Shown piece by piece: positions 2,413 through 58,900 of a DNA stretch of 64,000 bases; positions within the stretch are counted from its first letter, which is position 1; the number at the start of each line of letters is the position of its first letter. The notes below the pieces were generated by a model that was not told where the DNA came from, did not search any database, and saw only the letters and a list, made by a program, of their open reading frames with translations. The position numbers were made by a program, and so were the translations under genes. Origin of the DNA: Rhizaria sp. SCN 62-66 (Eukaryota); assembly GCA_001724265.1 (NCBI GenBank), contig MEDY01000122.1, forward strand, positions 1 to 64,000, read 5' to 3'.

Positions 2413-2894
2413 TACTTGGGCGCCAGTCGGTCGCAAGTTGCCGTGCGCTTCCGTGCTGCTGCGACGACGGAGGCGGGCGCGTGAGATGCTGACTAAACGA
2501 AGGGCGAAGCGCTAGAACAAAATCAGGAATAAAGTGGGAAGATTAGCGTTTGATGATATGAAAAATAACTGTTAGATGAAAAACATATAATTATATCCGA
2601 ATTTTCAAACACAGATTCTCAGCACGTCTCAGAATCGAGATAATCTCTTCGCAAAAGGGGCCACCTCGACCAATCTCGATCGAGCCAGCCGTGCGCGATC
2701 TACGTGTCTCTCGAGAGAGGCAAGAAGCTCGCCGGAAATTGCATACTCTAATTTGATCGTCAAATGAAACTCAGGCGCGTCTCTTAATGTCTTGGCTACT
2801 ATTTTATCTTTTCGTGATATTAAACTCGCTAAATAATTCATCCTGCCTCGCCACGACTCGTCCTATTATCGCAGCACTAGCTTTCTCTCGCACG

Positions 2895-4234
2895 ATGTCC
2901 TCTTCCGCGGAGCTCGTGGAGCACCTGATTTGGCTCGACTGTGACCCTGGTCACGACGACGCCTTCGCGCTCATGCTTGCCGGCACGTACCCGGGCGCGC
3001 GGCTGCTCGGCGTGTCCACCAGCGGCGGCAACCAGACCGTAGAGAAGGTCACCAAGAACGCGCTCAACATCCTGAACCTGATGGGCCAGGCGGGGACAGT
3101 GCCGTGCGTGCGCGGCCAAGAGCACGCGCTGATGGACACCACGGTGCCGTGCCCCGAGATCCACGGTGACACCGGGCTCGACACGCACTGCGGCGCGCGT
3201 TTCCCGGCGCACTCGCACACGGCAGTGGCTCAGAAGTGGCTCCCGTTCATGGCCAACGCGATCCTGACTGCGCCGCAGAAGGTGAAGCTGATTGCCACGG
3301 GCCGCATGACCAACGTCGCCGTGCTGCTCACGGTCTATCCCGAGGTCATGCGCAACCTCGAGCTCATCAGCATCATGGGCGGCAGCTCCAAGGGCGGCAA
3401 CACGCACCCCGTAGCAGAGTTCAACATCCAGGTACGCAGCACTTTATACTCATATATCTCGCGAATATCTCGATATTGTTTTATTATTCAATTTATTTTT
3501 ATGTGTGGTTGTTTATTTATCGTGTGATTTTGTTTAATAATTCTCTATAAGTGTCTATGTCCGCTAATAATCTCACTTTCTATATCTCCTTCTATGTTGC
3601 TTGATTGCTTTGTCTCCAGGGCGACCCTGAGGCTGCGCAGATCATCCTCAACCACGCCATGCTGGGCACCGACGCCGTGACCGTGAACAAGGCCAAGGAT
3701 TGGAGCGCTGTCCCCGACTCGGAGCTGCGCGTGCCCGTCGTCTTCGTCATGCTCGACGTGACGCACAAGGTTCTCGTCAGCAACGACGTTCTCGCCACGA
3801 TCCAGCGCAAGCACCTCCTGGCCGACAAGACCAGCGCCGCCGCCACCGCCGCCGCCGCTGCCGCGGCGACGACGACGCCGCTGCCGTCGACGTCTCCGCT
3901 GCTGTCCAAGTACGGCCAGCTCATCACGTCGCTGTTCCTCTTCTTTGCAGACTCGTACAAAAAAACGTTTAAGTTCGACCATGGCCCGCCGCTGCACGAC
4001 CCCGTGGCAGTGTTCTACGCGCTCAACCCGGCCGCGTTCTCGGCGCCCGCGTTTCCCGTCGCCGTCGAGTGCGCGCGCTCGCTGTCGCGCGGCCAGACTG
4101 TAGTGGACGTCTGGGGACAGACGAGCAAGGAGGCCAACGCGCTCGTGTGCGAGTCCGTCGACCTGGGGCTGTTCTGGGAGGCCATGGGGGACGCGATCGG
4201 CAGGGTCGGCGAGACGGCGCAGATGGACAAGTGA
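2895..4234 (+). CDS. Inosine-uridine preferring nucleoside hydrolase family protein; exons 2895-3431, 3620-4234 (~383 aa)
   Basis: WLDCDPGHDDA (DxDxGxDD Ca-binding motif), IHGDTGL, EFNIQ|GDPEAA restored across a GTACGC...CAG intron, PPLHDP, SRGQTVVD; TGA stop. Confidence 0.95.
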
Positions 4235-4736
4235 GCCTGATGACAACGACGACGACAGCTCGCTTCTTGAGCAGCTATTTGCTTGGCTCAACCCCAAATA
4301 CGATGCGGATCATAACGAGCAACATTACGAGTGACAAGTTGTGCGAGTAAGAGCGAGTGGTATTGCCATGGTGATGATTAAAAAAGTATGCATATGTTGT
4401 TTTTTTGTTCCTTGAAGAACTATAAAAGAGAAAGGCCAGGAATACACAGATTATGAGTGCTTTATGACGAAGATGTGACTTCTTTTGAGTTTCATTTTGC
4501 GCACTTTTAAGGTATAGTGCGTCTCAAATGAATTTTGCGGCAATTAAAAGTGTGATGTAACATATAAATAAAAAGATCTAATAATATACTGCAATTTTAA
4601 CATGTTTTGTGTTAGTTAAGTTAAGTTTTGAGTTGATTATGATCTGAAAAAGGGTGCGCCGAGAGAAATTTTTAATATTAAGAGAGATAATTTACTTGGA
4701 CATTGAAAGAAAATTGCATCAAGCACGTTTCCTCTT

Positions 4737-4782
4737 TATAAAAGATTTTTTAAGCATCAAGATGCTTAAAAAATCTTTTATA
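4737..4782. repeat. Perfect 22-bp inverted repeat with 2-nt spacer
   Basis: TATAAAAGATTTTTTAAGCATC-AA-GATGCTTAAAAAATCTTTTATA. Confidence 0.95.
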
Positions 4783-4894
4783 TAAATTGAACAAGCCCGA
4801 GTTGGGTCGAATCAAAAACAGTGGCAAATATGATGTAAAAAAAAGGATGCTGACTTGATGATAGACAGTAAAAAAAAGAAGAAGAAGATGTGGC

Positions 4895-5040
4895 TGTCTG
4901 TACTAAGAATCGAACTTAGTCTCCACGCACATACGCCCGGCCTGCCTTCGGCAGTAGCAGGCATCTGAAAAACGGGTACAAACTTGGCAATGCAAGTTCC
5001 GAAGTTCAAGGTGCGTTGACCCTCCTCTAGCCCAACAGAC
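4895..5040 (-). ncRNA. tRNA-like RNA gene, copy 1 (80-nt structured insert in place of the anticodon loop)
   Basis: GTCTGT-TG-GGCT-AGAGGAG-GGTC-A-ACGCAC-[insert 4931-5010]-GTGCGT-GGAG-ACTAAG-TTCGATT-CTTAGT-ACAGAC-A, followed by GCCA and a T8 run (4870-4877). Contains A-box and B-box-like sequences. Confidence 0.85.
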
Positions 5041-5085
5041 TTTTAGCAAGTCGCGCCGGCATGTTTTAGCGAATATACTCAGAAT

Positions 5086-5122
5086 CTTAGAATCGAACTT
5101 GTCTTCCTCTAGCGCAACAGAC
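5086..5122 (-). pseudogene. Internally deleted copy of the tRNA-like RNA gene
   Basis: GTCTGTTGCGCTAGAGGAAGAC-AAGTTCGATTCTAAG: the 5' acceptor/D-loop part is fused directly to the T-arm part; retains the upstream motif. Confidence 0.75.
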
Positions 5123-5245
5123 TTTCAGCAATTTTATTCGCAAGTTTGGACAAACATAAGGTAAACCCCGCGAGACCTTTGAGAACACTCGATTGCAAAA
5201 ATAAAGGATGCTGATGAGAGGTAGTGAACAAAAAAAAAGATTTGC

Positions 5246-5389
5246 TGTCTGTACTAAGAATCGAACTTAGTCTCCACGCACATACACCTCACTATCTTGT
5301 GACAGTTCGGCATTTGAAAACAGGAGCTTGCAATAATTGCGGAGTTCCATAAAGTTCACGTACGTTGACCCTCCTCTAGCCCAACAGAC
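5246..5389 (-). ncRNA. tRNA-like RNA gene, copy 2 (78-nt insert)
   Basis: Same arms as copy 1 with one change (ACGTAC, a G-U pair in the stem); insert 5282-5359; followed by GCAAA and a T9 run (5230-5238). Confidence 0.85.
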
Positions 5390-5630
5390 TTTTAGCAACA
5401 CCTGACAGCAAGTTTTAGCGAATATATTCAGAATCACGATAGACACGAAAAATATTATTTATCTGAGCTTACAGTGCAAAAGCGCTTTTAATGCTTAAAA
5501 AGTTCATTCATAGTCGTGTTTTATTTTTTAAATTTTACGTGTATTTTCTTATCATTATCAATGAATCCCACACACAAAACTACAAAAAAAAGACACTTCC
5601 ACTCCCGACGCAAAAGCTCTCGATATACAT

Positions 5631-5648
5631 TTATTTGCCAAAACTTGC
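5631..5648 (+). promoter_or_regulatory. Conserved upstream element of the tRNA-like genes (consensus TATTYGCYAAAACWTGC)
   Basis: Equivalent motifs at 5059-5077(-), 5408-5426(-) and ~5140-5156(-). All end 18-19 nt before the first G of the RNA, while the spacer sequence differs. Confidence 0.7.
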
Positions 5649-5666
5649 AAGTAAGCAATCATGAGA

Positions 5667-5809
5667 GTCTGTTGGGCTAGAGGAGGGTCAACGCACTTGG
5701 ATATATGGGCGCACGCTTGCGCTGCTGCCCGTTTTTCAGATGCCTCCGACACTGTTACGTGTCAGAGGCGTATGTGCGTGGAGACTAAGTTCGATTCTTA
5801 GTACAGACA
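5667..5809 (+). ncRNA. tRNA-like RNA gene, copy 3 (77-nt insert)
   Basis: Arms identical to copy 1; insert 5697-5773; followed by GCCA and a T9 run (5816-5824). Oriented divergently from copy 2. Confidence 0.85.
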
Positions 5810-5815
5810 GCCACA

Positions 5816-5824
5816 TTTTTTTTT
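5816..5824 (+). terminator. Putative Pol III oligo(T) terminator of copy 3 (equivalents at 5230-5238 and 4870-4877 on minus)
   Basis: T8-T9 runs shortly after each 3' acceptor strand. Confidence 0.7.
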
Positions 5825-6145
5825 GTTCGCCTCACAGCCCAAGCGCTGTGTCTTTTTTTTTTTGACTCGCGAGACCAACGCGCAGGAGGAGTACTCAAAA
5901 GTCTCGTGGCACTGCTATGCTGTGAATATTCTGCATAAAGCCAATAGCCAGTACCCCACTAGCGTCGCTGATCCCGTCTGTGGCCAGCTGGTGTTACGAT
6001 TGTGTATAATACTAGTAAGCTTATAAGTACGACAGTTAACCAAAGAACCAAAGATATTCGTTTTATTCAAGTCAAAAGTTTATCAATATTATACTCGTCC
6101 ATTCCAAGTTCCGTCACTTTCTCTGTTTGCTTGGTTACCCTCGTT

Positions 6146-32233: not shown

Positions 32234-32851
32234 TGTGCAACGGTAACGGCACTAGAAAATCAAGAAACAGAAGTGATATTTTAAATAAAATATGCGTTTG
32301 TTCACTTTAAACGTACAATAATTCGATTCGACGATGAAATGATGGAGATATACACATCTTCTTTAATCTGTCCGTTAGCCTCAACGGCTCGCTCGTCGTT
32401 TGCTCGCTCGCTCGCTCGCAAATAGGGCTGAAAAAAGATTCCACCACAAATCGCTTCTGCTTCACCCGTCACCACAAACAAAGCGAGTGAGTCGCAACTG
32501 GATGCGAAAAGTTCGAATGCATAGGCAAGATGTCGTGTTGGCGGGCTAATTCTGTCGTATCATGCCGCACCAAGCACATGAGTTCTTATCTCTTTTTGTT
32601 CCCGATTTCGCACTTTGTTCTTGTTGCGTGCGCAAATTCACTTCTCTCCAATGGCACCCTTCAAGCTTCCCCTCATCACAACTTTGTTGCCTTATTTATC
32701 ACTGTTTCTTTCCGCCACCCTTTATGCAATCTTTAGAACCCGCGACTTTTCTTTGACTTCTCCCCATTTATTCCGCGTAATCAAGCACGACACGCGCTAT
32801 ACCCTGTCAAATCCCTCTGGATACCAGACTCCCTTCTTCTCTCCTGCGCTA

Positions 32852-35800
32852 ATGTCTGCGACCGCTGCTGCCCCCGCTGCTGCCACCGGCGGCCCCGTGG
32901 GCTCCGCCTCCTCTGGTATCGACATCACCCGCGAGGTGATTCTGCTGGACGAAGGCTGGGACATCATCCTCAAGTCCGGCCTCCGCCGCCTCGAATCCCT
33001 CGTCGAGTCCCTCGGCCGCAGCAATAACAACAGCACGACCAACACAAACGCTTCGAGCTCTCTTTCTGGCGGCTCTGCAGCGTCCTCGTCTTTCGCCGAC
33101 GCGTGCCCCGTTGACGACGCCGCGTTCTCCCGCGACGCCGCGCCTCTGTTCACCCCGCGCGAGTCGATGGGGCTGTACTCGCTGATCTACCAGCTCTGCA
33201 TCCAGAAGGCGCCGCACTGTTACACGCCCAACCTCTACACGCGTCTGGTCGCCCACCTCGACGACTACCTCACCTCGACCGTCTTCACGGCCATTCGCGA
33301 CAAGCAGGGCGCCGCGCAGCTCACCGAGCTCGTCCTTCGCTGGCGCCAGTTCGAGGTCTACCAGCGCTGGATCTGCGTCTTCTTCCAGTACCTCGACCGC
33401 TACTACGTCGACCGGTACAAGAAGCTCAAGCTCTATGCACTCTGCTCCTCGCGCTTTGAGCACCTCGTGTTCCAGCCGCTGTCGAACACCATTACGGCCA
33501 CGCTCATCACCGCCTTCCAGGAGCTCCGCTCTGCAGCCGTCGAGTCCGTGCTCCAGCACGAGAAGTCAAGCCGCGCCGCCACCACTGCCACCATCGCCTC
33601 GAGCAGCAGCTCTCTGAGTGCTGGCTCTGCTGCTGCGAGCGGCAAGTCCGCGTCGTCGTTTGACCCCGCGATGCTGACCTTCGCGTCGCCGATGTCGGTG
33701 CTTCTGCGCCAGGTCCTCGCCGTGCACGTCTCGCTCGACACAGAGCGTCTCCGCGTCTACATTGTGCGCGCTGAACAGCCCCTTATCCACAACGCGGCCT
33801 CCTATTACGCCTCGCTCGCACCTCAGTGGCTTGCTGAGCCCGGTACGTGCAGCTACTGTTCCGAAAGAGCATTCAAACCAATTTGTAATGTTCTTTGCCA
33901 AATTTATTTCAACAAATCATCATATACCGACACACATGTCTCTCGCTTTCTTTCTTTCTCTTTCTCTCTTTTGCATCACCGTGAACCCCGGCCCCAGGCA
34001 TGACTCTGAGCGGCATGCTGCACCGCGCCGGTGCCGTCATCGACACCGAGCGCGCTCTGATCCGCTCCCACCTGCGTCCTATCGCCGAGCGCCTCGTCGT
34101 CACCGCCGTGGCTTCGGCGCTGATGCTGCGGCCGCAGGCGTTGATCTTCGCGCTCCCGCTGCCGCCGCTCACCGTCACCGTGCCCGTCACGACCACGGAC
34201 CCCGCGACCGGCGCCTCGGTCACCACGACGGTCACGAAGGCGGCGACGCTCGACGACCTGGTCCCCGGGAGCACTGACGCCATCGCCGCCTCCAACGGGC
34301 CCCGCGTTACGGCGGGCCAGACGAGCGCGTGCTTTGGCTGCGGGCCCGTGCCGGGGGGCCTCTTCGCCCTGCTCGCCACGCGCGACCGCGTGGCTCTACA
34401 GCTCGTCAACGTGCTCTACCCGACCGCCGACGCCGTGGCCGACGCGTTCAAGCTCGATGTCGCGCTGCGTCTGCGCGCCGCGCTCACGGTTGACCTCGCG
34501 GCGCCCACGCAGCTCACCACCTGCACGCTGCCGCTGCCGCTGGACCCGCTAACCGGCGGCGCGCCCGCCCCTGCCACGGCGGCGCTGCTGGCCTCGGGCG
34601 GACTGGTCGCCGTTGCGGCGCAGCGCATCGCGGTGCTGTTGGCGACCATCCAGGACATCCAGTCGGTCGTTGACGAGTGCTTCTCGGTGCGCGGCCGCAT
34701 CGCGCGCATCGTCCGCGGCGAGCTCCAGAAGCTCAAGGCCGCTAAATTCACCGTGACCAACGCGTCCGCGCACGCCGCGACGGCCGCGCTGAGCGCCGAT
34801 GACATCCCCTCGCTGACCGAGGTGCTGGTTTACCGCATGGACCTGCTGCTGCGCAAGCGGTCCCCCGCCGAGGCCGCGCCCGCGCTCGCCGCCGTCGTCG
34901 CGGCGGGGCTGGCGGCGAGCACCGAGGCCGCGGCGGGCGTGCTGACCGTGGCCCGCGACTCGAGCCTGAACCTCATGGCCTCGCTGGTGCCGCTCGCGGC
35001 CGACTTTGACTACCTCAGCGAGATGTACCGCCGCGCGCTGTCCAAGCGCCTGCTGCTGGAGCGCTACGTGTCGCTTGGCTTCGAGGAGAGCTACGTCGTC
35101 ACGCTGGGCCAGCGCTGCGGCATGCGGCTGTCGCAGGTCGACGTGCTCATCAACGACGTCAAGAGCAGCATCGAGGCGCACGACGTGTTCCTCGAGTGGA
35201 TTGCCACGGACCGCGCGGTCAACCCCGCCGCGCCTGCGCTCAACACGCTCCCCGCGGCGGGCTCCGACGAGGCCATCGCGCGCTTCGGACCCCAGGTACG
35301 TTCACTCAAGCTCTTAAGAAAACAAACGATTTTTTTGTGATCCATTTTTCAACTGACCAACTCACTATTTTCGTTTTCTTGTTGCTATTTTTTTTTCTTC
35401 GCTTAATCTCAGGCGCTCAACGTGCCCGACGGCTACTGCAACGGCGTGAACCTGTCTGTGCAGACGCTGACCTCGGCCTGCTGGCCCGTGGAGGCGACCC
35501 CGGCAGTGAACCTACCCGAGCCGCTCAAGTCGTGCGTGCAGTCGTTCGAGACCTTTTACGACTCGGTGACGCGCGCGCGCGTGCTGCACTGGGTGCACAA
35601 CGTCGGCGCTGTGACCATGACGGCGCATTTCACCGAGCAGAAGCTCGAGCTCGTCATGTCCGCACTCCAGGCCGCCGTGCTGCTCCAGTTCAACGCCAAG
35701 ACGCGCATGACCGTGGCCGCGCTCGGAAAGGAGCTCGGCCTCGCGCCCTACATCGTCAAGCTGCAGCTGCGTTCGCTTGTCTCAGGACCTGTACCGCTGC

Positions 35801-43965: not shown

Positions 43966-46900
43966 ATGTCATACTATCAGGCGCCCACCGCGGCCGCTGC
44001 GGCGGGACTTGCCACCGCCCGCCCGACGCACTTGCTCGGTATGATTGATGCTGCACCCTCTGCTGCGTCGGGAAGCTCGATTGACGCGCTTATCAACGCG
44101 TGTTTCGACGCTTTTGTTCGCTCCACCCGCAGCTACCTACACGAGTCGCTTCAAGGTACACAATCCCCTCCTTCCCAACCCCCTCCCCCCCAGCAAGATC
44201 TTAAGGAAATATATCAATGACGTGCGCTTAATTGTCGCTTCACCACGAACATTATTTTGTTTTTATTGAAACAAACCATTATCTTGCGTGTTGTAAACCT
44301 GCTCCAAATCTTACCTGGCCGCAACTCAGACCTCACCTTTCCGTCTCTATCTAACCTTGCGCCCTACACCGATATTAACACCCACACTAGACACATGGGA
44401 CCCCGCGAGCCTGCGCGTGTTCCTAGACCAGGAGTTTGCTCCTATCTGGACGATCCGCTCCTTGGTCATATTTTCCCGCACCAACCTCGACATCGTCGTC
44501 TCATTTCTGCGCCAGTGGCGCGAAGTCGTGCTCGCTGCCTACGACCACACGCGCCACATCACGCAGTCCTCGGTTGCGCCCACGTCCTCCGCCCTCGGCG
44601 CCAACAGCAGCGGCGCGAGCGAGAACAACGACGACGACCTCCCGGCCGGCGTCCCCAGTACTTCCGCCACCAAGGAGTCGATGTATAAGCTGATTGTCGA
44701 CGTCGTCTTCTGCCGCTCGCTATTGCTGATCGCGCTCCCGCTCGTCGACGACGCCTACGACAGCATTCTCGCGGTCAAGAAGGCCTCGGTGCCCGGCGCC
44801 GCCTCGTTGGGCGCCTCGTTGGCTTCCACTGCGGCTGTAAACGCGAGCAGTAACAGCAACAACGCCAATGCGAGCACGAGCTTCGGCTCAGCCGCGCTCG
44901 ACGCCAACGCCAAGCGGCTGGAGCCCCTGTACAACCGCCGTGCGAGCGCCGTGTTCACCCACAACGCGGCGTCGCTGAACCCGTACGCGGCAATGAATCC
45001 CGACATGTTCAAGTCGACGCTCGCGACCATCAGCTCGCTGCGCAACCTCTCCACCGAGGCGCAGGCCAACGACCTTTCCGTCACGCTGCGGCTCTGCCAG
45101 GTGCGTTCTGGCAAACACATGTCTTGTCAGCTGTCACTGTTTCCGAGTCTTTGCATGCATCAAAGCAGAGATGACTGTATCTGAAGGCGTAGATGATCAT
45201 TTCATGGTGTAGTCTCAAAACATAGATTTTTTTTTCGCTTACGAAATAAGTTTCCTGTTTCTCGCTTGATAATATTGTTTTGTTTTCTAACTTGCGATTT
45301 CTCCAGGAAGACGCGACGGCCATCGAGGCCATGTGCTGCGAGTTCGTCCGCCTGTCCCCCGTGCCACTGCCTTCCCTAACGCTCTGGCAGCGCTTTGTGC
45401 ACCGTTCGGCCAAGTCCAAGGCCGCGTACCAGCTGCAGCATCTGCACCACGTGTGCTATGCGGTGCTGTATTCGTTATGGCCCCACGCCGTGGGCTGTCT
45501 CTCGGCCGCCTCCGCGCTCATCAACAATGACTGCGAGGCCAAGCAACAGGACGCACTCGCCCGCGCCGCCGCCTCCAGCGCCTCGGCGAGTGGGTTATCG
45601 GGCAACGGGCCCAGCTACGCGTACCCGTTCCAGCCGCCGCCGGTGGTCTCGGCCGCGCCCAGCGCGCTGATGTACCTTCCGCCCGCGGCGCACGCACAGG
45701 AGTGGTTACGCACGCAGCAGGAGCTGCACGCACGCAAGATGGCCGAGGCGCAGGCCCAGCTGCTGGCGTCGCCCGACACTTACGCGCAGCTCATTCAGGC
45801 CAGCCCCATGCAGTCGGTCGAGCGCCCTCAGGTATGTTCTAGGAGATCTTTATAGAGAAACAAAGATTTATGGAGGCATTAAAAGAGTATATTTACGAAT
45901 ATCATTGTGTTTTACTTCTAGATGTCATTTAAGCTTACTACGCAAAGTCAGATATCTGACTTAAACATGACTCATAAATCCTAAACCACTGCTCACAGTC
46001 ACACCTCGTTGTTCTATCAATACCCGCCTCTAGGTGCAAGTGTCGTTCGGCTTCCTGCTGTTCGGCATGATCAGCCTGAAGAAGGACGTGAGCGTCGAGC
46101 ATGTGCGCCGCGCCGCCGGCATGCTGACATGGTTCTGCATTGATCTCATCTCGAAGTACAACTTAGTCACCGCCTCTGCGGCCGCCGAGTCCCTGCTGAC
46201 ATTGTTCAAGCACTCTAAGGGCGACAAGGGCCGGTCCGTCGTTAAGCGCATCCTCTGCGTGGCCATCTACAACATGCTCTGGCCCGTCGCCGAGGCTAAG
46301 TGGTCGACGGCGCAGGACTATTCGCGATGGTTCGCGCTGCTCATTGACCTCCACTCGACCGTGCTCGCCTGGGCGGTCAAGAAGAAGAACGATTGGCTCG
46401 TCGCCCTGCCCACTCTCACCGCGCTTATCTGCGCATCGCCGCGCGAGAACTTTACGATGAACTTCAGCGCGATCCGCCACACGCTCGTGCAGGCGTACGG
46501 GCACCCGGGGTCATGTGTCACCGCGCTCCGCTGCGCGCAGCGCGTCGTGTTCGTCTACCTGTCAAAGGTCTGCGACCGCATGGAGACGACGGTGAATGCA
46601 CTCTCTCTGATTTTGACGGATATCCTCACGGCCGCGCAGACGCAGACGTTCTCGTTGCAAATGATGGCCAACACTGCGACTGGCAGTGGCGGCAGCGGCG
46701 CTGGCTCGGCCGCAGGTGCGGGCAGCAACAACGCCGACGCACTGCTGCTCGAAAGCGAAGGCAAGAGCACGGCTTTTGGTGCCGGCGTTGACGCCTCGCA
46801 CTCGTTGGCCTCGCTCAACACTACCGGGGCCGCCGGCGCCGGCAGCGGCAGCGGTGATGACGTCAACGGCGGCGCCTTCGGGGCAGGCGGCGTGATGAGG

Positions 46901-49900
46901 GGAGGCGGCACGGCCTCGGCCGCCAAGGTCCGCTCTACCGCCAGGGGTACGTCTTTATATAATAATAACGATTTGGCGTTATATATCTTACTTTGGATCA
47001 ATGAGGCTGCTCTATTTCTGTTATATTTTGTGTAAAATTTTACCCTGAAGTGTGACTCACGTGTTTCGTCTCGCTTCGCTTCGTTTTCTCTTGCTTCTGT
47101 TTGCCACTGTGTGTGTAGCTCTGCTGCCACAGCACTCACACTGGGTTTTGGGCGACTTGGAGTCCGAAAACGCGTTTCTATCCGTTATCCTCACCGTGGC
47201 GTGCTGGTCTCCAGTGTACGCGATCGAGAACATCATCCTGCCGCTGATCTCATCGCCGACAAACACGGACAAGAACAGTGCCGTTGCCCACAGCGACCGC
47301 GCCGCCGCCATCATCCTCAACACACAGGCCGCCGCGGCCATGACCGTGGGCCTCGGCTTCGCTTCCTCTTCAGGCGGCAACAGCGGGGATAAGCCTCTGT
47401 TGCTGCTCGAGCCTGTTAAGAGCACGCGCCCCGGAGCCGGCAACGTGCAGCCTGGTTGCTACGATGCCAACGTCGTCGTGGGCTTGCGGGCGCTCAATAT
47501 CATCATGTCCGGCAAGCTGGCTCTGTCGCCCATCCAGTACGCGCCCGGTACGTTAAGTGAATCATTAGCAGATGTATACGCTTTCAAACTGACTAGAATT
47601 TCTATTATTGACACGATTTATCCTGTAAGATACCAGGAGCGATTGTTTTCATTCTTCAATGACGATACTTTTCACTAATCACGAAACTCCTTCTTTGTTT
47701 CGCCTCGATCTTAGGCCTGAAGCTCGCTCCCGGCCCCACCATCGACATCCTGCTGCATCTGCTAGGCGCCTACACCGACGCCGCGGCCGGCAGCGACCCT
47801 TCCGCGCTGCTCATCAGTTCGGCGGCCTCGCTCAAGGCCCTGGTGTCGGAGCAAAACGGCGCTAGCGGCGGCGACGGGAAGAGCGGCAAGAAAGACGTGA
47901 CCAACGCGGCGAGCGAGCTTCCCGAGTACCTGGGCAAGAACAACACCTTTGCGTGGCCGTCGACGGCCTCGGTGCTGTGCCAGCTGCTGCCGCTGCTGCA
48001 GCACGTCACGGCCTCGCACCTCATGTCGCTCGCAACCCGGGCCTCGGGGCGCGCGTTGGCCTTTGCGCTGTCCCAGCTCATGACGCAGTCGTTCGTGACC
48101 GTGGGTACGCTGCTGTACCCGTCTTACTCGCCCGCCGCGACGCCCGAGCTGCTGGCACGCAACAAGGCCAGCATCACGGCGCTGCGGCTCATCATCCGCG
48201 CCGTCGCGTACGTGTGGCCCAACGAAATCAACGCCACCGACTTGCTGTCGATGGTCTGCGCCGCCGTCATCCACCTCGACCGCGGCGTGCGCGCCGCCGC
48301 CGCCTCGTTGCTGGGCCTGTTCACGCGCGACTCGAGCCGGCCCCATGTGCGCGCCGCCGCGGTCAACGAGCTCTCCCTCTTCCTTTCCTCGCTCCCCGCG
48401 GTCAGCGGCAACCTGGACCTGCCCCAGGCTCTGCTGGCGTGCCCCGAGGCCGTAGCGGTCGCCACACGCACCGCAGAGAGGCTGCGCGCCGCGGTGCCGC
48501 CCCCGCCAGCGCTCCATAGTACGGCGGCGGGGGCCGCGTCCGCCGCGGGTTTCGGCAGTTATAACAGCGGCAACGGCGGTGCGCAGAGCGCCAGTGTCGG
48601 CGAGTCCGGCACCGGCGTTGTCGGCGGCGTGAGCAGTATTGGCGGCCTCGCGGCAGCGGCGGCGGCGGCCGAGCTCGCGCAGAGCTCGCTGGCCCCCAAC
48701 GCGACCCACGAGGCCACGTCGCTGCACTTCCGCAGCGGCGGCGGCGGCGGGAGTAATTCTTCCGGCGGTAATTCTTGTAGCAGCGCCTCGACCGCGGCGG
48801 TGCGGCACTTGCGCGTCGTCTCGCTGGAGCCAACCGGCCTGGACACGAGTCTCATCGCCACGCCTATCAAGGGCCTTTCCGAGAGCAATGGCAGCGCGAG
48901 CAACGGCGTTTCCGCCGCGAACAACTCATCTTATGTTGAAGGACTCGGCGGCTTTACGGTGCCCGACGCCGAGGACACGGTCTTCGCGATGAAGCTCAAT
49001 TCGACCATTTCTGGCGCCGATCGCGCCGTGGCGCGGCTGCAGATTGACGTCATCCGCGGCACTGACCCCAGCGAGGCCGGCAGCGAGGTCACTTTCGCCG
49101 TCCTGGCGCAACTGCAGCGTCTGCTGACCATCTGGGCCGAGGACGCCTGCCAGACGGTCTGCGAGGCCGCCGAGGTCGCGGCCGACCTGCGGGCGCAGCG
49201 TACTGACGCCATGGAGCAGTCCCACTGGCGCAACACCCTCAACAGCGCCAGCAACAGCAGCAACTCAAAGGGCACTCTCCGCAAGCAGACTAAGGCGTAC
49301 GCTGGCCCCGGATCCTTTTTCGGAACCGGCCCCCGGTTGTCCGCCGACGGCGACGCCGCTGCCGAGACGCCCCAGGAGCGCGCCGCGCGCGCCGCCGCCG
49401 CGGACCGTGTGTGTCTCGGCGAGATCGCGCGCGCCGGGCGTGCCGTGCAGACGCAGCTCAAGGGCCTGGCGGGGCTCGACTGGCCGGGCATCGAGGCGTC
49501 GGTCGCGGTGTCACTGACGAGTGCCAGTGGCGGCGTGCGCGTGCTGTCCCTCGAAACGCTCTCGCTGCTGCACGCGCTGGCGTCGATGCACGTGCGGCTG
49601 ATCGATGCGCTCGCGCAGCTCGAGAACAAGCGCGAACAGGTGCTGGCTAAGTGGGGCGGTGTTGATCCCTCGACGCTCACTGTCGCCAGCGCGCTCGCGG
49701 CCAGTCAAAGCAACGACAGTCAGGGCAACTCCCACTCGGGCGCTCATGAGGCCAATGCTAGCATGTCTGGCAACAGCGGCTTTACTTCTGCTGCTGCTGC
49801 AGCTAATGGTAAGCGCGCATTCGGCTCCTCCCGCGCGATGGCGGCGTCGCTGCGACGGCAGAGCGCAATGCACTGCAACCCGCTGACTTCGGCCAGCGCA

Positions 49901-52900
49901 CAGCAGCACACAGGAGTCGAGGCCGACTCCCTGTGGTCGCTTAATCTGGGCAACGGCAGCGGCAACACCACCAACAACAGCAGCAATGACAACAGCGCTG
50001 CTAACGCTTCCTCCGCCAGTGCCGGTTTGACTAGTCCGACGGCTGCCAGACGCCGCCCTCCCCCCGCCCTCCCTGGCGTTAGCGCTAACAGCAACAACAG
50101 CAGCAACAGTTCCAGTCTCCAGGGCCTCGCAGCCGTTGCGACCGCGACTGCCTCCGCGTCCCTCGCTTCCTCGTCGTCCGACCAGAGCTGTAGCAGCGCG
50201 ATGGGCCCCACAGTGAACGTCGATGAAGCGATGGCGTGCAACAACATCTCCGGTTTGGCGCACTACTCGAGCGCGTTCCTGCCCCCCGGCCGCCACATGA
50301 TCGCGACTCTGTGCGCGTCGCATGGCGGGCTCCGCAAGCACTTGCTGTCTCTCACCCAGGCCACGCCCCTGCCTTCTGCTTCGCAACCTAATTCTCACTC
50401 TCAGTCTGGCTCTAGCTCTGGCTCTAGCGCCGCTAACCCGAGTGATATTTGGTGGCGCAACAACACCGCCGTCGCGAGTAACATCGCTGGCAAGAGCGCA
50501 TCTCCCACGCAAAGCGCCTCATTCGATGACGAGGACGCGGAGGGCGACTGTGGGATCTCGGCCCTCTCGGCGTTGTCCCCGCTCGACCCCCAGGGCTGGG
50601 ACTTCCTGCTCTCGCTGGCCAGCGCCACCTCGCTCGAGGGCCAGAACCAGTGGACGCTCGCGGTAGGCTACCTCTTCCGCTCGGCGCTGACGGCCGTTCT
50701 GTCGCAGCAGGTCAAGCTTCAGGTCAGCAACTTCGAGGTGGAGAAACACGTCTCACTGCTCGCTCCCTCCGCCTCTGCCGCCCACGATCGCTTCGCCGAC
50801 GGCGCGGCGCCCAAGCTCGGCGTGTCGTCCTATTTCGTCAAGTGCTCGATGGGTCTGTTCACCTTCCTGGCGCCCCCGCCCACCGCAACCCTGCTCCGCG
50901 CTGTTACATATGCAAAGACGCGTCTCTCGCCGCTGCTGCGCCCCGCCGGGTCCGCGTTCGCTGCGGCCAACGTGACCGCGCTCACGACCCACCGCGTCGC
51001 CGTCGCGCCCACGCTGCTGCCGTCGAGCATCGCCGCCGCCAGCAACGGGAGCAGCGCGGCGGGGCTAGTGCAGGCGCTGGACAGCAACGCGCCGCCGTCG
51101 CTGCTGCCGCTGACGGCGACGCAGGTGCAGCAACAGCAGTCGGATATCTACGGCAGCACCAGCGTCTCTCTGCTCATGCCCACCGCTGATAGCAACAGCC
51201 ACAGCAACAGCAGCAACTCTGTGAATGCTAATGCGAATGCAAACTCTGGCACGGGGGTGACCGTGAGCAGCACTGCCTCTGTGGCCGCCGTGTCCGGCGC
51301 CGCTCAGGGCCAGTCTCAATCCGCCGGTCAAAGCGCCACCCACAACGGCGCCGGCGGCAGCGGCAGCAGTGGCGCCAGCGGGTCTCAGGCGCAGCAGAGC
51401 GGGAGTGGCAACGGCGGACACACGTTCGGCGTGGTCCACGACCAGTCTGACGTGACGCTGACTGCGATGCGCAACACTGCGGTACTCATGGCCATCACGT
51501 GTATCGTCCCTAGCAAGGCGCTGCAGCTGCCGCTGGACTACATCGTCACTGCGCCCGCCTTCTACAACGCGCTCAACGCCACCAACAGCGACTACCGCGC
51601 GAATGCGGACGCGAGTGCGAGCGCGAGCGCTACTGTGGACTCGCTGCTGTCACCGCACCTGTTCAGAGACGGCCACTCGATCTACCAGGACCTGACCCTG
51701 CTGCTGCTGTCGACCTCGCTGCACGTGCGCCGCATCGCCGCCACTGCGCTGGGCGCGGCGCACCCGCTCGCAGTGCCGATTGTGCTTCACGGCATGCTCG
51801 AGCTCGAGAAGGCAGTGTACACTTCGACGGAGCCCTTTGAGCTGCTTCCTCCTTTCGCTCAAAACATCTTCACCGGCATCAACAACGGCATGGCCGCAGG
51901 CGGCGCTGCTGCTACTGAATCGAGCAGCAGTAAGTCTAGCGGGAAGGATAAGGCGATTGTCGACAAGGACCGCAAGGTTCGCCTTGCAGCCATGCAGCTG
52001 ACCCCACTTGCGCTCACCCACAGCGGGAACGGCTCCGGCAGTAGCAACAACAACGTCGACATGCTGTGCTCTAGTGCTTCCGGGGACAGTGTTGCTCTTG
52101 TCAATCCCTCGTCCGGTAGCGGCGGCACTGCTGGCAGTAACCGTTTCCCTCCCTGCGACCCGACTGGCGGCCTCGCCATCCCGCTCATCAAGGGCGTCCT
52201 CTCGCTCTCAGGGCTCGGCCCCAACCCCAGCGGCAGCAAGTCCGCCTCCGCGGTACGCAAGCTTACTGATGACCTCCGCATCGGGCTCGCGCACGTCTAC
52301 CGCCTGCTCTCGGAGCACTTAGACGCGCAGTACTTAGACCGGCACTTGCACGTCAAGGCCCGGTTCTTCATCGCGATCAATGAACACTTTTCCTTCTTTT
52401 CGCAGCTCGGCAGCGACTTGCGCTGGGATTTACTCGCGCTGCGCACTGATTTCTGCATTATCCTCCGCCGTGTCGCCTTCGAAAGCCTGTCTGCCACTCT
52501 CTTGCGCTCCCGCCTGCTCCCCGCTCTCACCCACAGCTCTGCCAGCTGTTCCGACTCGAGCAGCTCGAGTGGCTCCAACAGCTCTAGCTCCAAGAAGGGC
52601 GTTAGCTGCGCTGTGCCGTTCGCCTTTGCGTTCACCACGGAGTTGCGCTCGGCGCTGTTTGAGTTCATGCTTTCCTGGTGCGGCCTGGGTCCCGCTACGG
52701 CCACAGCGAGCTACCACACGCGCATCGCGCAGCACAAGCAGGAGCTCCTTGCGCGCGTCAAGAGCAAGGACACGGCGCTGCGCGCGACGCTCGAGGCAGC
52801 CTTCACGGAGCAGGTCGCGGGGCTGCAGCACGAGACACTGCACGCCATGGCCTCTCTGTTGGGAGGACCCAACTTCGACGGCACGGTGCTGGCGCTGCTG

Positions 52901-55900
52901 CAGGAGGCGGCAACTGGCGGGCCTGCGACTGCCGCAGCCGCGGCCGAGGAGGCCAAGGCCGCCGCCGCCGCTGCCGCCGCCGCCGCCCGTGGCGGCAAGA
53001 GCAGCAGCAGCTGGTGGGGCCGCAAGGGCAAGCGCGAGGTGACGGACGCGCTCACAGCCCGCAGCGCAGTCTTCTCCTGGGTCAACGCGCTGCTGTTGTC
53101 ACCGGCGCCGGCCGTGCGCGACGTGGGCTTCCTGGCGCTGCACGTGTTCATCTCGAGCAACAAGGCGCTGCTGCCCGCTTTCATCAACCAGTGCTACGCG
53201 AAGCAAGCTGCGCTCGGCCGCCGCTACTTCCTCGTCGTTGCGCGCGTCATCCTGCTCTGTTACAGCGGCCACGACTTCGTTGATAACGCACTCGGCCGCA
53301 AGTCCCTCGCCAGCAGCCCCACGGGTGACCCCATGGGTACCGGGAGTTACAGCAGCTTTCGCGAGCGCGGGTGGCATATCCCGCTCGACCTCGTGACTCA
53401 CCTGGCCATTAACAAGCTCGGCGACGCCAGCTACAGCGTGCGTTCGATGGCCCTGCGTCTGCTGCCGCTGCTCGAGCAGCACTTGTCCGAGCACGCCACT
53501 GCGCTCGGCCTGTCTAACGTCGCTGCATCGAGTGACCGTGAGCAGCAGCAGCAGGGTGACCGTGAGCAGAGTGACTGTGAACAAGAGGAGGAGCAGCAGC
53601 AGTACGGTGGTCTGTTTGGATGGGACGCTGATATGAACTACATTTCGAGTCACTACACCAACACCAACAACAGCAACAGCCGCAGCAGCTTCTACGTCAA
53701 CAGCCACGGCAACTTTGCTGCCGACAACGAGGAGTGTAAGGGCGGCGACGAGGACGACTGTGAGGCTAAGAGTGCTGCCGAGGCTGCTGACACCGTTTGC
53801 TTGCAAGACGACGCTTACGGCGACGCTGCCCGCTTACGCGCAGACGAACACTACTTAGAGCAGCAGGAGAGGTACTCAGAGCAGCAGCAGCAGCGTAAGA
53901 GTAAGAGCAAGAACAAGAAGAAGGCTGCCCGGTCTAAGTACCCCGCGCCCTCAGCGGCGCGTGTAAGGGGCGCCCCCGAGGACGTTCCCTTAGACTGCTT
54001 CGACCACGAGCCCTCGGCCATCCTCACCTCGCACCTGCCCGACACGTACCTCAAGGTGCAGGTCTCCTGGTCGCGCCGGCTGGCCGGCAAGTTCTCCCAC
54101 CTTGCGCTGCCGCTGCTGCAGGAGGTCGCGGTGCGGATCCACTTTGTGGCCACGGCGGCCGAGCAGCAGCAGCTGCTTGAGTACACGCGGCCCTGGCTCC
54201 AGCACATCGTGCTCACGAGCGCCGAACACTGCTTCCCGCCCAAGCCGTCCGCACTCTACGCAAACCCCCTCAGCACCAATGGCGCTGCTGTTGACGCTTC
54301 GAGCAACAACAGTCAGAACGTGCAATTCAATAACTTCGTTGAGAGTGCTGCTGATGGTGCATTTGCGGGCCCTGTTTTCTCGGTCCCGTCGCAGTCGACC
54401 TCGACGTGCGTGATCCTCAACGACGCCGACAGCGACGCCCTCATCACCTGCCTGCTGGGTCTCATGTGCACGCTCGGTGGCCATTGCGCGCAGCAGCTCG
54501 ACGGGCTCTGGACTGCACTCGTCTGCTCCACCTTCGCCGAGGATACCACGCCCAGCGCGTACGTCAAGTTCGTTTATAACCCCCTCTCTGTCTCTGCCTC
54601 TAACCCTCAGAGCAACACTGCTCGCATGAGTGATAGTGATGGCTCTGGTGCTAGCGCCAGCAACGGCGGGATGGAGGCCATTTTCGCAGAGGAGGAGCCT
54701 AGCAGCAACACAAACACTAACAGGTACGCATTATTTTTCAGTCAAACGTCACTTTAAAATCACAATTATTCGCATTTCCGTTGAATATCTTCTCACAGTA
54801 GATTATGCTTTCCTTGTTTTTGTTATATCTCTTCTCCTTATAGGCGCGATGTGTTCAAGATGCAGAACACCGCGGTTGTTCTGACGCACCTGCTGCTCAC
54901 CGTGAGCGGCCGCGTCCATGGCCGCTTCGACAACACGTTGCTCCAGGCCTGCAAGTCGGTCACTCTGTACCTCTCGCGCGCGTGCCCGCTCTACGTGCTC
55001 AACGCGCTGGCCCTGCAGGTAACGCCCAACAGCCTGTTCGAGGCCGGCATTCCCCCGCCTCCGCATAGTAGCAGCGGCGACGCGGCGACCGCGACGTTCT
55101 CATCGGTCGCCCATCTCTACGCAAGCAACGGCAACGCTGCCGCTGAGAGCGACTCGAGTGAGACCGCTATTGTTACCGCTGCTTCTGCGTCTGCGCCTGC
55201 TACGAGTTCCAGCAGTTACTCCACCACTGCTGGCCTCTCTAGCTTCAGCCCCCGCAACTCCGCTAACTCCAGCGCCCCCGGCTCTCACATCGCCGCCGCC
55301 GTCGCCGCCCTGAGCAGCGGCGGCGCCGGCGTGGCCGCGGCCGCGGGCTCCGCCGCGCCCCGCGTGGACTGCGCAGCCGACCTCATGACCGTGGGCGCCA
55401 GCGCCTTCACCACGACGGCGCGCTCGACGGACGTCGCCGCCATCGCCGCCACGGTGCCGTACACGGCGCCTGTCGCGGCCGCCGCGGCAGACGGGCCACA
55501 GGGGCCCGGTTTGCTGTTCTCGCCGACAGCGGCCGCCGCCACTGCCAATACCAGTGCGCACACGCGCAACGCCGTCAACAGTCACTTGAAGTTCACCTTT
55601 GCCCCGACGACGACTGCTGGTGCTGCTGCTGCTGCTCCCGGCGACTTTGCAGGCAGCAGCGTTGCCGCAACCTACGACGTCCTGGTCAACTCCCCGAACC
55701 CCTCCGCCGGACTCGAGGCCTTCACCGTGACGTCCTCGACGGCCTACGGCAACTACTTCCCCGGCGAGGCAGTGTACATGTCCCCCTCGACGCTCGCACT
55801 GTCGCTGCTCATCGACTCCGTGTACGAGCTCTCGCTCCCCGCCGCCGCCGCTGGGCTGTCCGCAGACACGGCCGCGCTTGAGGCAGGCGCGAGCTATCTT

Positions 55901-58900
55901 CTGAACAACAACAACAGCAACGGGAGTAACAGCGTGACGGCGGCGTTCTCCGCGCTATTCCGCCGGGCAGTCTGCGGCCGCAACACGAGCGGCGTGAACA
56001 CCACCGCCAGCAACGGCTGCGGCTACTACAACAACATCAGCAACAACACGAAGGGCGGCGCAAGCGAGAGTGAGAATAGCGGGTGTGTATTGGGCGACAG
56101 CTGGTCTCGCCAGCCCGTCTACAGTGCCGCTGCGCTCTTCGAGCTGCCAACGCTGACCGAGTGCTTGGTGCAGATCTTACACATCGGCGTCCAGGGCTTG
56201 GCGGCGCACAACAAGCTCATCGTGCGGCACCACTGCGCAATGCTGCTTGTGAATCTCACGCACGCCGTCACCTCGCTGCCCCCCATCAAGAGCGCTCACG
56301 GACAGTTTGTCGGCTCTGCTGCTCACGGCCACCCCGCCACTGCCGCCGCTGGTGCGACTATTGGTGGGGGCTACACTGGCGAGCGCGGGGCGTTCGTGCG
56401 CGTGCAGCAGCTCAAGGCACAGGCCTCGGCCCGCAAGCAAGGCGTCACCATGCTGCTCTGCGGGTACCTCGACTCTCTGCTCAAGACCACGGTGGACGAT
56501 GTGAGCGCGACGATCGCCTTCACGCCGCGCTGCTGGGACATCGCGCTGCTCTACGACGCTAGCACCAGCGCGCAGACCGCCACCGCCGCGGCCGCCGCGC
56601 TCAAGGCCGGTGCGCGCAATCTAAGTACCCCGGCCACCGGTCTAAGTGCTGGCGCCCCGGTGCCCGACGCCGCAAGTGTGTCTGCGCAGTCCCCCGCCAT
56701 CACCGTTGACGACGCGTCCTTGACCTCGCGCGTGACACGCTTGCTGCTCTCGGTCCTCGCCGACGCCGGTCTCTCACAGGCGCAGCTGGCCTTCTGCTGG
56801 GGCCATCTCGCGCTGCGCTGGGCGCTGGCGTCGCGCCACCCGCAGGCCAAGCTGCGCGCGCTCGACGTGTACCGCAACGCACAGCCGCAGTTCCAGCCCT
56901 CGGCGCTGCCGCTGCTGGCCCAGCTGCTGGCGCAGACGGCCGCCGGCACGCCCACCGGGCTGCTCGACGACAGCGTAGAGGGCTGCCTCCGCCGCGCCTG
57001 CGCCCCGCTCCTGGGTAACGTTAACTCTAATGATGCGAACTGTGGCGCTGCGAGCAGCAGCAACGCCGTCACAGTCACGGAAGCGTTTGTGGTTACTCGC
57101 GCGCTCGAAGACGCCCTGCAATACGACCGTCGCCGGCTCTTGATCGCTGCTACCAGTGTGCCTCAGCTCACCCCTGCCGCAAACGCGTCATCTGCGAGTA
57201 CATCCACGGGTTCTGACAGCTATAGTAGCAACAACGGCGGTGTCACATCCCCGCGTGTTGCTCTGGCCAACCGCATGTCCTCTCTGTCGCTCTCCGACGT
57301 CAGCAGCAGCGTCCGCGCCCTGTTGGCCGCCGCTGGCCGTCTCCCGGCCGGCCGCGCCGAGGTGGCAGCGCTGGGCGCCGGCTTGGGCGCGGCGGCGGGG
57401 GCCGTGGACTGGGTCCTGGTGTCCAACACCGTGGGCGCAATGCAGCACCTGCTGGCGACTGCGCCGGCGGCAGTCATGAGCATCACCAACCACACGCTCG
57501 TCGCCGATAGTGACAAGGCGGGGGAGAGCGAGGCGCCGATAACGCTCATGGGCTGGTGCTCCCTCGCTTCCACTCTGCAGTCGCGCACGAGTGTTGCGGG
57601 AGCCACCGCCGCTGTGAGTGCCAAAGCTGTCGCTGCGCACAGGACCCGCGCCCTCGGCAAGCTCATTACCGTCGCCGCGGCCTTCCGCGCTGTGCTGTGG
57701 TCCGCCGTCGGCCTCATGCGGCTTGACTTGCACACCGACCCCGCCGATAATAGTCGCGGCATGCTGCAGTCGCCCGTCTTCCCGCCCGCCTTCACCGCCG
57801 GCGCGAGGCTGCTGTCCGCGTTCGTCGACTCGCCGCTCACCACGCTGCACCCCGTCACGGCCAGCAGCGCGCACAGCGCATACGTCACCTCTCTGAACAG
57901 CAACAGTAACAGCAGCAGTACTGGCGCATTGATGGCGCTCACGAACAACCGCCGGTGGGCGGTCGCGACGGCCTTCACCCAATTCCTGCAGTGGCACGCC
58001 GTGGCGCCGCCCGCGGAGCTGCTGGCGGTTCTCAGCGACAACAACGGTGCCGCGCCGCTGCTGGCCGCCGGCGGCGTCCGGACGGCCACCGCGGTCGCCC
58101 GGTCCCGCCTGTCGCTCGCGGGCGCCGCAGCCAGCATGCAACAGTTCCAGTACCAGAACAACAACAGCAGCGGCAACGGAAGCGGCGGCTCCTCGAGTAA
58201 CGGTGTTGCGCCGATGGCGTTCGCGTTCACCGGGCTGCACGCGCTGCTGATGCGCGGTGTGAGCACACTTAATACGCACGTCCGCGCCGTCGCCGCGCAC
58301 AGTTTGCTGTCGCTGTGGTCCGCGCCCCCGACCCTGCTCACGGTCACCGACGTGGCCTACTTCGACAAGACGCCCTTCCACACCGCGGGCACCGCCGCGG
58401 CCGCCGTTACTGCGCTCGCGCAGAGCAACGGAAGCCAGGCCGCGCTGGGGGCGGCTTACCTTAACGTCGAGACGCTGCTGCCGCAGACCGCGGTGGTGAC
58501 GGCGACTGTGGAGCAGTTCAACATCGCTGCCCCGCTTCTGCTGCGCCAGACGCCCGCCTTCTTGGCGCTCGTCACTGCGATTCCTCTGCTGATGCACGCG
58601 TTGTCCGAGCCCCGATCCTCGCTGCACGTGTTCAGCGACTTGTACGTGCCGGCCACCTCCGCCACCCATAACCCCACCGCTGCGACCGCTAATAACAGCG
58701 GCGGCAACGCCGTGTACGTGAGTGGGCCCCAGAGGTCCAAGGCCGTCGCCGCCAAGGCTGCCGCCCACCAGTCCTCTCTCGCGAACAGCAACGGCAAGAA
58801 CACCTCCGCCGTTGGTGTTTCGACCGAGAGTGGTTTCTTTGGCGTGGCCACACACAGCATCCATGACCCCTTTGCGACGGCCACGCTCGTGTCGCTCGCG

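Follow-up and report, generated by a model that had tools for sequence, protein, structure and literature searches.

The stretch of DNA analyzed here, 64,000 nucleotides (nt) of contig MEDY01000122.1 of Rhizaria sp. SCN 62-66 (hereafter the window), contains three small genes within 0.9 kb, each specifying a tRNA-like body whose anticodon loop is replaced by an insert of 80, 78 or 77 nt (copies 1 to 3, respectively) enclosed by a 6-bp stem (Table 1). The genes and the lengths of their inserts had been put forward in an initial annotation and are borne out: patterns taken from the 5' arm (27 nt) and the 3' arm (29 nt) each match the window at exactly three sites and with no mismatches (up to three were permitted), and none of 100 shuffled sequences gave any match. 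A covariance model built from the three copies (R1) and run over the 64 kb at an expectation value (E) of ≤10 also finds these three and no others. The 66 nt of arm sequence are identical save for one change, as had been claimed. (Compared in pairs, the 30-nt 5' arms agree at 29/30, 30/30 and 29/30 positions, and the 3' arms at 36/36 in all three pairs; the sole difference is a C to T substitution in copy 2 (ACGTAC), by which a G-C pair with GTGCGT becomes G-U). On sequence grounds, the locus is most likely to harbor a real, selected small family, comprising three paralogous genes and one dead copy.

The inserts are only 61-63% identical in pairwise comparison (shuffled pairs average 49%), and identity of the flanks is 51-73% over 60 nt upstream and 54-58% over 100 nt downstream, relative to a shuffled baseline of ~50%. 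Constancy of the arms while flanks are nearly random and inserts diverged implies that the duplications are old and that the arms have been held constant. Purifying selection on the arms is the probable cause; gene conversion would have to be limited to two ~30-nt tracts around a diverged insert, and appears less likely. The dead copy consists of the 5' arm as far as the D loop (two substitutions in 18 nt) joined to a decayed T arm with a broken T stem, and is without anticodon-type stem, insert or 3' acceptor strand; R1 does not recover it at E ≤10. It illustrates decay at the cluster, in contrast to the frozen arms of the full copies.

Signals of the kind that flank and occupy tRNA genes are present at every full copy. 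An A-box-like sequence, TGGGCTAGAGG, starts at +7 and a B-box-like sequence, AGTTCGATTCT, at +122 to +125, each with two mismatches to the consensus, and both boxes are found in equally good form in 29 of 5000 shuffles. A 15-nt upstream element, TTYGCYAAAACWTGC, ends 18 nt before each full copy (-33 to -19) and is found at all four gene starts, that of the truncated copy included; the window contains five matches in all, the fifth being a 2-mismatch site elsewhere, and none of 100 shuffles reached five. Runs of eight to nine T residues, already remarked on in the initial annotation together with the boxes, lie 6-17 nt past the discriminator base and are followed by another T run further on. 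Conservation ends two bases past the discriminator A, which is the pattern of a tRNA gene with a trailer. [quoted passage not shown] The upstream element goes beyond the earlier account of the locus, as do the truncated copy and a consistent threonine placement of a hypothetical intron that is taken up below.

Table 1. Positions in the window of the three genes, the truncated copy and their associated elements.
Feature	Coordinates	Strand	Details and basis
Copy 1, 146 nt	4895-5040	-	tRNA-like arms; 80-nt insert 4931-5010; R1 169 bits
Copy 1, hairpin 1	~4965-5009	-	fold
Copy 1, hairpin 2	4933-4964	-	fold
Copy 2, 144 nt	5246-5389	-	78-nt insert 5282-5359; hairpin 2 5284-5313; R1 132 bits
Copy 3, 143 nt	5667-5809	+	77-nt insert 5697-5773; R1 145 bits; folding z -4.0
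Copy 3, hairpin 1	5697-5739	+	fold
Copy 3, hairpin 2	5740-5771	+	fold
Copy 3, AU linker	5772-5773	+	fold
Copy 3, conserved strand CCCGTTTTTCAGATGCC	5728-5744	+	insert comparison
Truncated fourth copy	5086-5122	-	repeat families D3, D4, I7, I16
Upstream element TTCGCTAAAACATGC, copy 1	5059-5073	-	18-nt spacing
Upstream element TTCGCTAAAACTTGC, copy 2	5408-5422	-	18-nt spacing
Upstream element TTTGCCAAAACTTGC, copy 3	5634-5648	+	18-nt spacing
Upstream element, truncated copy	5140-5154	-	2 mismatches, 17-nt spacing; repeat family I10
T8 run after copy 1 (A8 on + strand)	4870-4877	-	17 nt past discriminator
T9 run after copy 2	5230-5238	-	sequence
T9 run after copy 3	5816-5824	+	second run, T11, at 5853-5863

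Several other features lie near the terminator-like runs. A AAAAWAAAGGATGCTGA block is located just past the first of the T runs that follow copies 1 and 2 (4837-4853 and 5198-5214, + strand) and is followed in both by the second gene-strand T run; copy 3 has, instead, a hairpin (CACAGC...GCTGTG) and T11. A weak match to a Dictyostelium C/D small nucleolar RNA (DdR1, E 2.5) covers 4827-4895. A perfect, AT-rich 22-nt inverted repeat (TATAAAAGATTTTTTAAGCATC / GATGCTTAAAAAATCTTTTATA, 2-nt loop) occupies 4737-4782, ~500 nt downstream of the neighboring nucleoside hydrolase gene; it yields weak matches to plant microRNA families in Rfam (best E 0.0013, far below gathering score) and is perhaps a terminator acting in both directions, or else a small inverted-repeat element.

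The locus is also represented in independent sequence. Two sequencing runs from different studies have contigs in which the surrounding 1.5 kb is found with an identity of ≥99% (all 13 pieces in run X1 and 12 of the 13 in run X2). The runs in which half or more of the sampled words occur belong to three studies (bioreactor, wastewater or unlabelled samples), and one of them may be the source of the window itself. In X2, position 5713, in the apical region of copy 3's hairpin 1, is T where the window has A; the other five differences over the 1.5 kb are all in flanks, and none is in the arms. A 42-nt unitig common to the 3' arms has a depth of 132 in X1, vs 36-55 for its unique neighbors, and of 25.8 in X2, vs 3.9-13.2. 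Unitig depth, a rough proxy of copy number, suggests approximately three copies per genome, and this threefold depth argues against a dispersed repeat. One clearly truncated copy and a slightly non-canonical body might be taken to signify that all of these genes are non-functional remnants (tRNA pseudogenes disrupted by insertion, or a tRNA-derived short interspersed element (SINE) or other mobile element). Such an origin is very improbable for a single cluster in which arms that are 97-100% identical stand in far more diverged flanks, in which every copy has its own upstream element and T run, and whose unit lacks an A-rich or LINE-type tail, with only three R1 matches in 64 kb and the same small copy number indicated in two runs. 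The many (in the initial annotation, hundreds of) dispersed and decayed copies, with tail and target-site duplications, that mark a tRNA-derived SINE are not seen in the 64 kb, nor does the unitig depth point to them.

The inserts are predicted to fold into two hairpins. Independent minimum free energy (MFE) folds of copies 1 and 3 arrive at the same junction topology: the 6-bp stem ACGYAC/GUGCGU encloses the insert; hairpin 1 (43-45 nt) begins 0-1 nt past this stem and is closed, in copies 1 and 3, by UUGRA/UUCAG, above which are a small U-rich internal loop and then a GGR/YCC helix; hairpin 2 (30-32 nt) follows hairpin 1 without spacer and is closed by AUGCC/GGYGU in all three copies; and a 2-nt AU linker returns from hairpin 2 to the 6-bp stem. 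The upper stems of hairpin 2 (CUGCC/GGCAG, ACUGUC/GAUAGU and GACAC/GUGUC) are unrelated in sequence and all paired, just as the initial annotation had it, and the seventh pair of the lower stem is G-C in copy 1, C-G in copy 3 and a tandem G-A in copy 2. The predicted structure is thus a tight two-hairpin three-way junction, clear in two copies and weak in copy 2. (In operational terms, the pair probabilities of the lower stem of hairpin 1 are 0.78-0.98 in copies 1 and 3, vs 0.09-0.24 in copy 2). The earlier statement that all inserts fold the same way is accurate for copies 1 and 3 and, in the case of hairpin 2, for all three, and fails for the hairpin 1 lower stem of copy 2. Among 1000 mononucleotide shuffles of each copy, 28, 23 and 29 (copies 1 to 3, respectively) form a hairpin-2-like domain in the corresponding position, and 37, 14 and 34 form a tight two-hairpin junction.

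Conserved sequence within the inserts is concentrated on the junction side, in the strand CCYGUUUU(U)CARAUGCC and in GGYGUAU; an 18-nt block containing the former is identical in copies 1 and 3. Realignment guided by R1 gave back the MAFFT register. Complementarity of the inserts to the rest of the window amounts to chance matches of 9-15 nt only. The structure predictions support the proposition that the fold of the insert is retained despite changes in its sequence. What had been proposed originally, a tRNA-scaffolded, structurally selected and sequence-variable module, stands as far as a selected family with a maintained fold is concerned, and is weakened by the fold of copy 2.

The enclosing body can be drawn as a cloverleaf with acceptor, D, T and anticodon-type stems at a cost of 1.4-2.3 kcal/mol above the MFE. 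In this constrained fold, the T stem is lengthened by an A-U pair, and acceptor and T stems can be read as 6 + 6 = 12 bp, with U7 replacing U8; the T loop is TTCGATT. The linker between acceptor and D stems is one base rather than two, unless the stems are split 6/6. Since the body departs from that of a canonical tRNA, its processing by tRNA enzymes is an assumption.

A cloverleaf body with T and D loops is also what a decoding tRNA would have. On the other hand, the genes do not share an anticodon flanked by U33 and a purine at 37, whether read directly or through an intron at 37/38, and do not reach the family threshold of either Rfam (RF00005) or ARAGORN. Rfam matches the genes neither at gathering score nor at E ≤10 (the latter searched over 4700-6000, as in what follows), and ARAGORN with default settings finds no tRNA gene in the 64 kb and no tmRNA (transfer-messenger RNA). 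When introns are allowed, ARAGORN draws a cloverleaf for all three copies (for copy 2 only at lowered stringency), with an intron at 35/36 and the conflicting assignments Thr(TGT), Ile(GAT) and Thr(GGT) for copies 1 to 3. For a systematic comparison, seven-base loops were assembled for every split between the two sides (k bases 5' and 7-k bases 3') in two stem registers, giving 16 placements. In the register that fits the body, none of the eight placements gives U33 and a purine at 37 in all three copies. An intron at the canonical 37/38 position would leave TTG/TGA/TGG (Gln/Ser/Pro) or, in the other register, TGA/GAA/GGA (Ser/Phe/Ser). The claim that the canonical reading yields a different triplet in each copy is upheld in this sense, and overlooks the placement at 33/34, which yields threonine in all three copies.

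This placement would make the three copies working tRNA-Thr genes (two CGU, one UGU) with a 75-78-nt intron at non-canonical position 33/34, the 3' exon providing YGU-A37-U38. The stem would then be CGYAC/GTGCG and the loops CU-CGU-AU, GU-UGU-AU and UU-CGU-AU, with U33 and A37 in all copies and with the only variation in GGYGU located at the wobble base. Identical exons combined with diverged introns are the usual pattern of a tRNA gene family, and two of the three cloverleaves of ARAGORN's intron mode are labelled Thr. Ectopic introns are described for nuclear tRNA genes of a red alga in PMC3728597. The difficulties lie in the details. The required register places two bases between the D and anticodon stems, while canonical spacing is matched by the other register; among otherwise identical exons, position 32 would differ from copy to copy (C, G and U); the 3' cut would be made within the paired AUGCC/GGYGU segment rather than at a bulge, and a bulge-helix-bulge motif in support of 33/34 is lacking. 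Moreover, given ~25 conserved bases, that one of the 16 placements should resemble a canonical loop is not much of a surprise, and a discarded intron leaves the conserved 17-nt strand and the maintained hairpins unexplained. Genes for functional tRNA-Thr are accordingly regarded as quite improbable.

Other readings of conserved segments were tried and rejected. A tRNA that reads UGA (by means of UCA in the conserved UUUCAGA) would be harmful and is excluded, since long open reading frames (ORFs) of the host terminate at TGA: it ends the histone deacetylase, tubulin cofactor C and kinesin ORFs, and is the stop codon of 23 of the 45 ORFs of ≥250 amino acids (aa). Judged by eye, Leu (CAG/CAA, with a 6-bp stem), Gly (GCC) and Tyr (GUA) readings fail either to fit all copies or on geometry. 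The same is true of a hammerhead, H/ACA and C/D boxes, an Sm site, the Alu domain of the signal recognition particle (SRP), and splice-site-like UUUUUCAG and GUAUGU strings.

Resemblance to intron-bearing nuclear tRNA genes, including the sources of tRNA intronic circular RNAs (tricRNAs), extends beyond threonine: identical 'exons', diverged inserts at the anticodon loop, a tRNA-type leader, trailer and T run, and acceptance by ARAGORN in its intron mode. The genes differ from these in having no conserved anticodon at 37/38 and in the conserved strand and maintained fold of the insert. Their predicted junction also lacks the Drosophila-type arrangement set out in PMC6614914, in which all intron-bearing pre-tRNAs have a proximal pair by nucleotide 32 and a 3-nt bulge at the 3' cut, with the 5' cut six bases past the proximal pair. 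This junction leaves no residues unpaired other than the 2-nt AU linker, and has C32 paired to G38; features for the splicing endonuclease, whether Drosophila-type or bulge-helix-bulge, are not found there. A scan of all pairs of cut sites provides one bulge-helix-bulge-like candidate common to all three copies (helix ACGY/GYGU; bulges ACN and AUG), which borrows its two outer pairs from the D-stem region and fuses the stem strands without leaving a loop.

These observations bear on the possibility that the tRNA body is a processing chassis from which the splicing endonuclease excises the insert as a stable linear or circular functional RNA, comparable with a tricRNA, the ligated body being a by-product or a mascRNA-like mini-tRNA. 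The insert retains a fold and a 17-nt conserved strand, which is more than a discarded intron needs, and a bulge-helix-bulge-like alternative exists in every copy. The eukaryotic endonuclease accepts introns of varied structure, measuring as it does from the mature domain (PMC4090602, PMC6614914), and stable circles can be formed from tRNA introns (PMC6614914, PMC4536317). However, the candidate cut site comes at the expense of the 6-bp stem and of hairpin 2's lower stem in addition to using D-stem pairs, the features described for Drosophila in PMC6614914 are absent from the predicted junction, and processing alone would tolerate compensated changes in the arm stems, of which there are none. 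Excision of the insert as the functional product is therefore considered unlikely.

With regard to layout, vault RNA is the closest analogue. As summarized in PMC7058938, vault RNAs are hardly conserved apart from box A and box B, and have 5' and 3' regions that pair, a middle domain of variable length and sequence, internal type-2 promoter elements together with upstream elements, and small clusters of paralogues with pseudogenes. The genes described here share paired conserved ends, a variable central domain, clustered paralogues with a pseudogene, and internal boxes with an upstream element. They differ in possessing a near-complete cloverleaf and a 6-bp stem that bears a closed two-hairpin junction, and their upstream element is not of the cyclic AMP response element/proximal sequence element (CRE/PSE) type of mammals (PMC7058938). 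Might they be the vault RNAs of this organism, housed in vault particles, or its equivalent of Y RNA, bound by a TROVE-domain protein (TEP1 or Ro60)? The agreement with the description of vault RNA in PMC7058938, the 2-mismatch boxes, the upstream element, the length of 143-146 nt and the group of three clustered paralogues with a dead copy would fit. Neither the Vault nor the Y_RNA model of Rfam gives a match at E ≤10, which is weak evidence because these models are built from distant lineages; no TEP1 or MVP was found among the 19 window ORFs scanned. The cloverleaf, with its D arm and T loop, is much fuller than that of vault RNAs, and this identification is distinctly unlikely.

Among other RNAs built on tRNA, the TMERs (tRNA-microRNA-encoded RNAs) of murine gammaherpesvirus 68 use a non-decoding tRNA-like body as Pol III promoter and as a handle, for processing or stability, for hairpins; these are Dicer-type precursors positioned downstream of the tRNA-like portion. 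Engineered 'tRNA scaffolds' are artificial and carry their cargo in place of the anticodon loop. The present genes have in common with both a tRNA-like body carrying attached hairpins, and with the scaffolds the site of the cargo; they differ in that their hairpins are short (~13-14 bp), located inside the anticodon stem, and cellular. The mascRNA, the trypanosomatid SRP-associated tRNA-like RNA, bacterial YrlA and tmRNA are L-shaped mimics of tRNA with non-decoding roles; tmRNA and YrlA are bacterial and have other topologies. To our knowledge, none of these has a two-hairpin junction in place of the anticodon loop. An assignment as tmRNA was rejected, ARAGORN finding none and acceptor pair 3:70 being C:G, not G3:U70.

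Searches elsewhere returned no relatives. The 22-nt 3' arm has no match in metagenome contigs of the Joint Genome Institute (JGI), and a pattern of D loop, gap and T loop finds nine loci there, all unrelated, none matching R1. Seven of the nine (L002, L004-L009; e.g. L006, 11455-11564) constitute one homologous stretch, unrelated to the cluster, with tRNA-like A-box/B-box sequences ATAGCTCAGTGG ... GGTTCGATTCCGG ~60 nt apart and no tRNA found by ARAGORN, with or without introns. Viral contigs match neither the arm nor the central motif. In contigs of prokaryote genomes the central motif occurs at 13 loci in unrelated bacteria, approximately the number expected by chance, and none matches R1. 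The initial annotation had recognized no described family; this accords with Rfam and with the literature, in which no description of such a layout was found among titles and abstracts returned by full-text searching (this is no proof of novelty) and, in particular, passages of the tRNA review PMC7954030 name no RNA of this kind.

In the poly(A) metatranscriptome X5, one 210-nt contig (depth 2.5, no mismatches) corresponds to 5054-5263; it covers the truncated copy, the spacer between copies 1 and 2, and the T run and last 18 nt of copy 2, and leaves the inserts uncovered. It may represent read-through, another transcript or carry-over of DNA. A second poly(A) metatranscriptome, X9, has nothing on the stretch. 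Together, the two runs speak neither for nor against transcription.

The cluster is located in an AT-richer spacer (4298-6145) between two convergent genes, one for an inosine-uridine nucleoside hydrolase (2787-4234, + strand) on the left, the other for a histone deacetylase on the - strand, ending at 6146. G+C content is 41.9% at 4701-6000 (1.3 kb around the cluster) vs ~60% for the window, and no ORF confined to the spacer exceeds 67 aa. The nucleoside hydrolase consists of two ORFs that correspond to Pfam positions 1-165 and 166-297; the ~77-nt gap between them is likely a short intron. Other proteins of the window are ordinary eukaryotic ones: kinesin-14, cullin, tubulin cofactor C and a furry-like protein. 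The best non-self match of the kinesin motor is 60% identical (metagenome protein P0004), and its named matches with identity noted, from animals, plants, an oomycete, a haptophyte and an amoebozoan, are 34-52% identical; the best non-self match of tubulin cofactor C is 30% identical, and the histone deacetylase falls only into generic eukaryotic clusters of the protein atlas. Judged by these proteins, the host is a eukaryotic lineage that the databases have not sampled and that is without close relatives there, and this would be the reason that relatives of the RNA were not found. The cullin-family protein (32615-35340, +) extends over two ORFs, 32615-34003 and 34000-35340, whose 4-nt overlap points to a frameshift, a very short intron or a mistake in assembly. 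A very large gene at 44357-63556 (+), apparently for a MOR2/PAG1 (furry)-like cell-morphogenesis protein, comprises several long ORFs, of which those of 2304 and 2901 aa share one frame.

The balance of this evidence favors a selected, non-decoding family of structured RNA genes, to which a probability of roughly 0.8 is assigned, and which is most likely a new variant among the tRNA-derived non-coding RNAs. A number of points weigh against this reading and the mechanism outlined below. Complete identity of the arms would equally fit a genuine tRNA, or gene conversion, and an intron at 33/34 with the stem shifted by one pair does read Thr in every copy (CGU, UGU, CGU). The body is non-canonical, with either a U7-U66 mismatch or a 6/6 split of its stems. 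Folding z-scores are weak in copies 1 and 2 (-1.6 and -1.2; that of copy 3 is strong), and in copy 2 the hairpin 1 lower stem lies outside the MFE structure, at +0.9 kcal/mol. Three paralogues of one organism are too few for a formal covariation statistic. The sole contig of an RNA library on the stretch falls between copies 1 and 2 and is perhaps DNA carry-over, and 64 kb of sequence do not allow a partner protein to be named.

A working model of such genes can be outlined. Pol III would transcribe each gene by way of the internal A- and B-box-like elements, aided by the upstream element at -33 to -19, and would stop at the T8-T9 run. The 12-bp acceptor/T stack would allow the ends to be trimmed by RNase P and RNase Z, possibly with addition of CCA, and the L-shaped body would confer stability and export. 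The RNA would remain unspliced; the conserved junction strand would be a protein-binding surface, with the variable hairpin tips as spacers, and the whole would act as a small ribonucleoprotein (RNP) scaffold in the manner of vault or Y RNA. This full mechanism (an unspliced, end-processed, tRNA-shaped RNP scaffold) is put forward tentatively, its prospects being somewhat short of even. A more far-reaching proposal is that the genes specify an undescribed class of cellular RNA, a natural 'tRNA scaffold' distinct from vault RNA, Y RNA and spliced tRNA, with a fully selected tRNA body that permanently bears a modular two-hairpin junction for an anticodon loop. Factors that handle tRNA (processing enzymes and exportin, and perhaps also an elongation factor or a synthetase) would make use of the body in trans and the junction would bind a dedicated partner, thereby coupling a cellular process to the tRNA pathway. 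This is doubtful on present evidence.

Non-decoding Pol III RNAs derived from tRNA are few (vault RNAs, viral tRNA-like RNAs and mascRNA), and most are without clear function. As regards annotation, standard tools miss the genes described here or, in intron mode, give them conflicting amino-acid labels. Were they to prove to be vault RNAs, they would help to define that family beyond animals and trypanosomes; were they Thr tRNAs with an intron at 33/34, they would be an unusual case of splicing for a nuclear genome. If the favored interpretation, a selected and non-decoding RNA family, is true, they would constitute a clean natural example of the use of tRNA as a scaffold.

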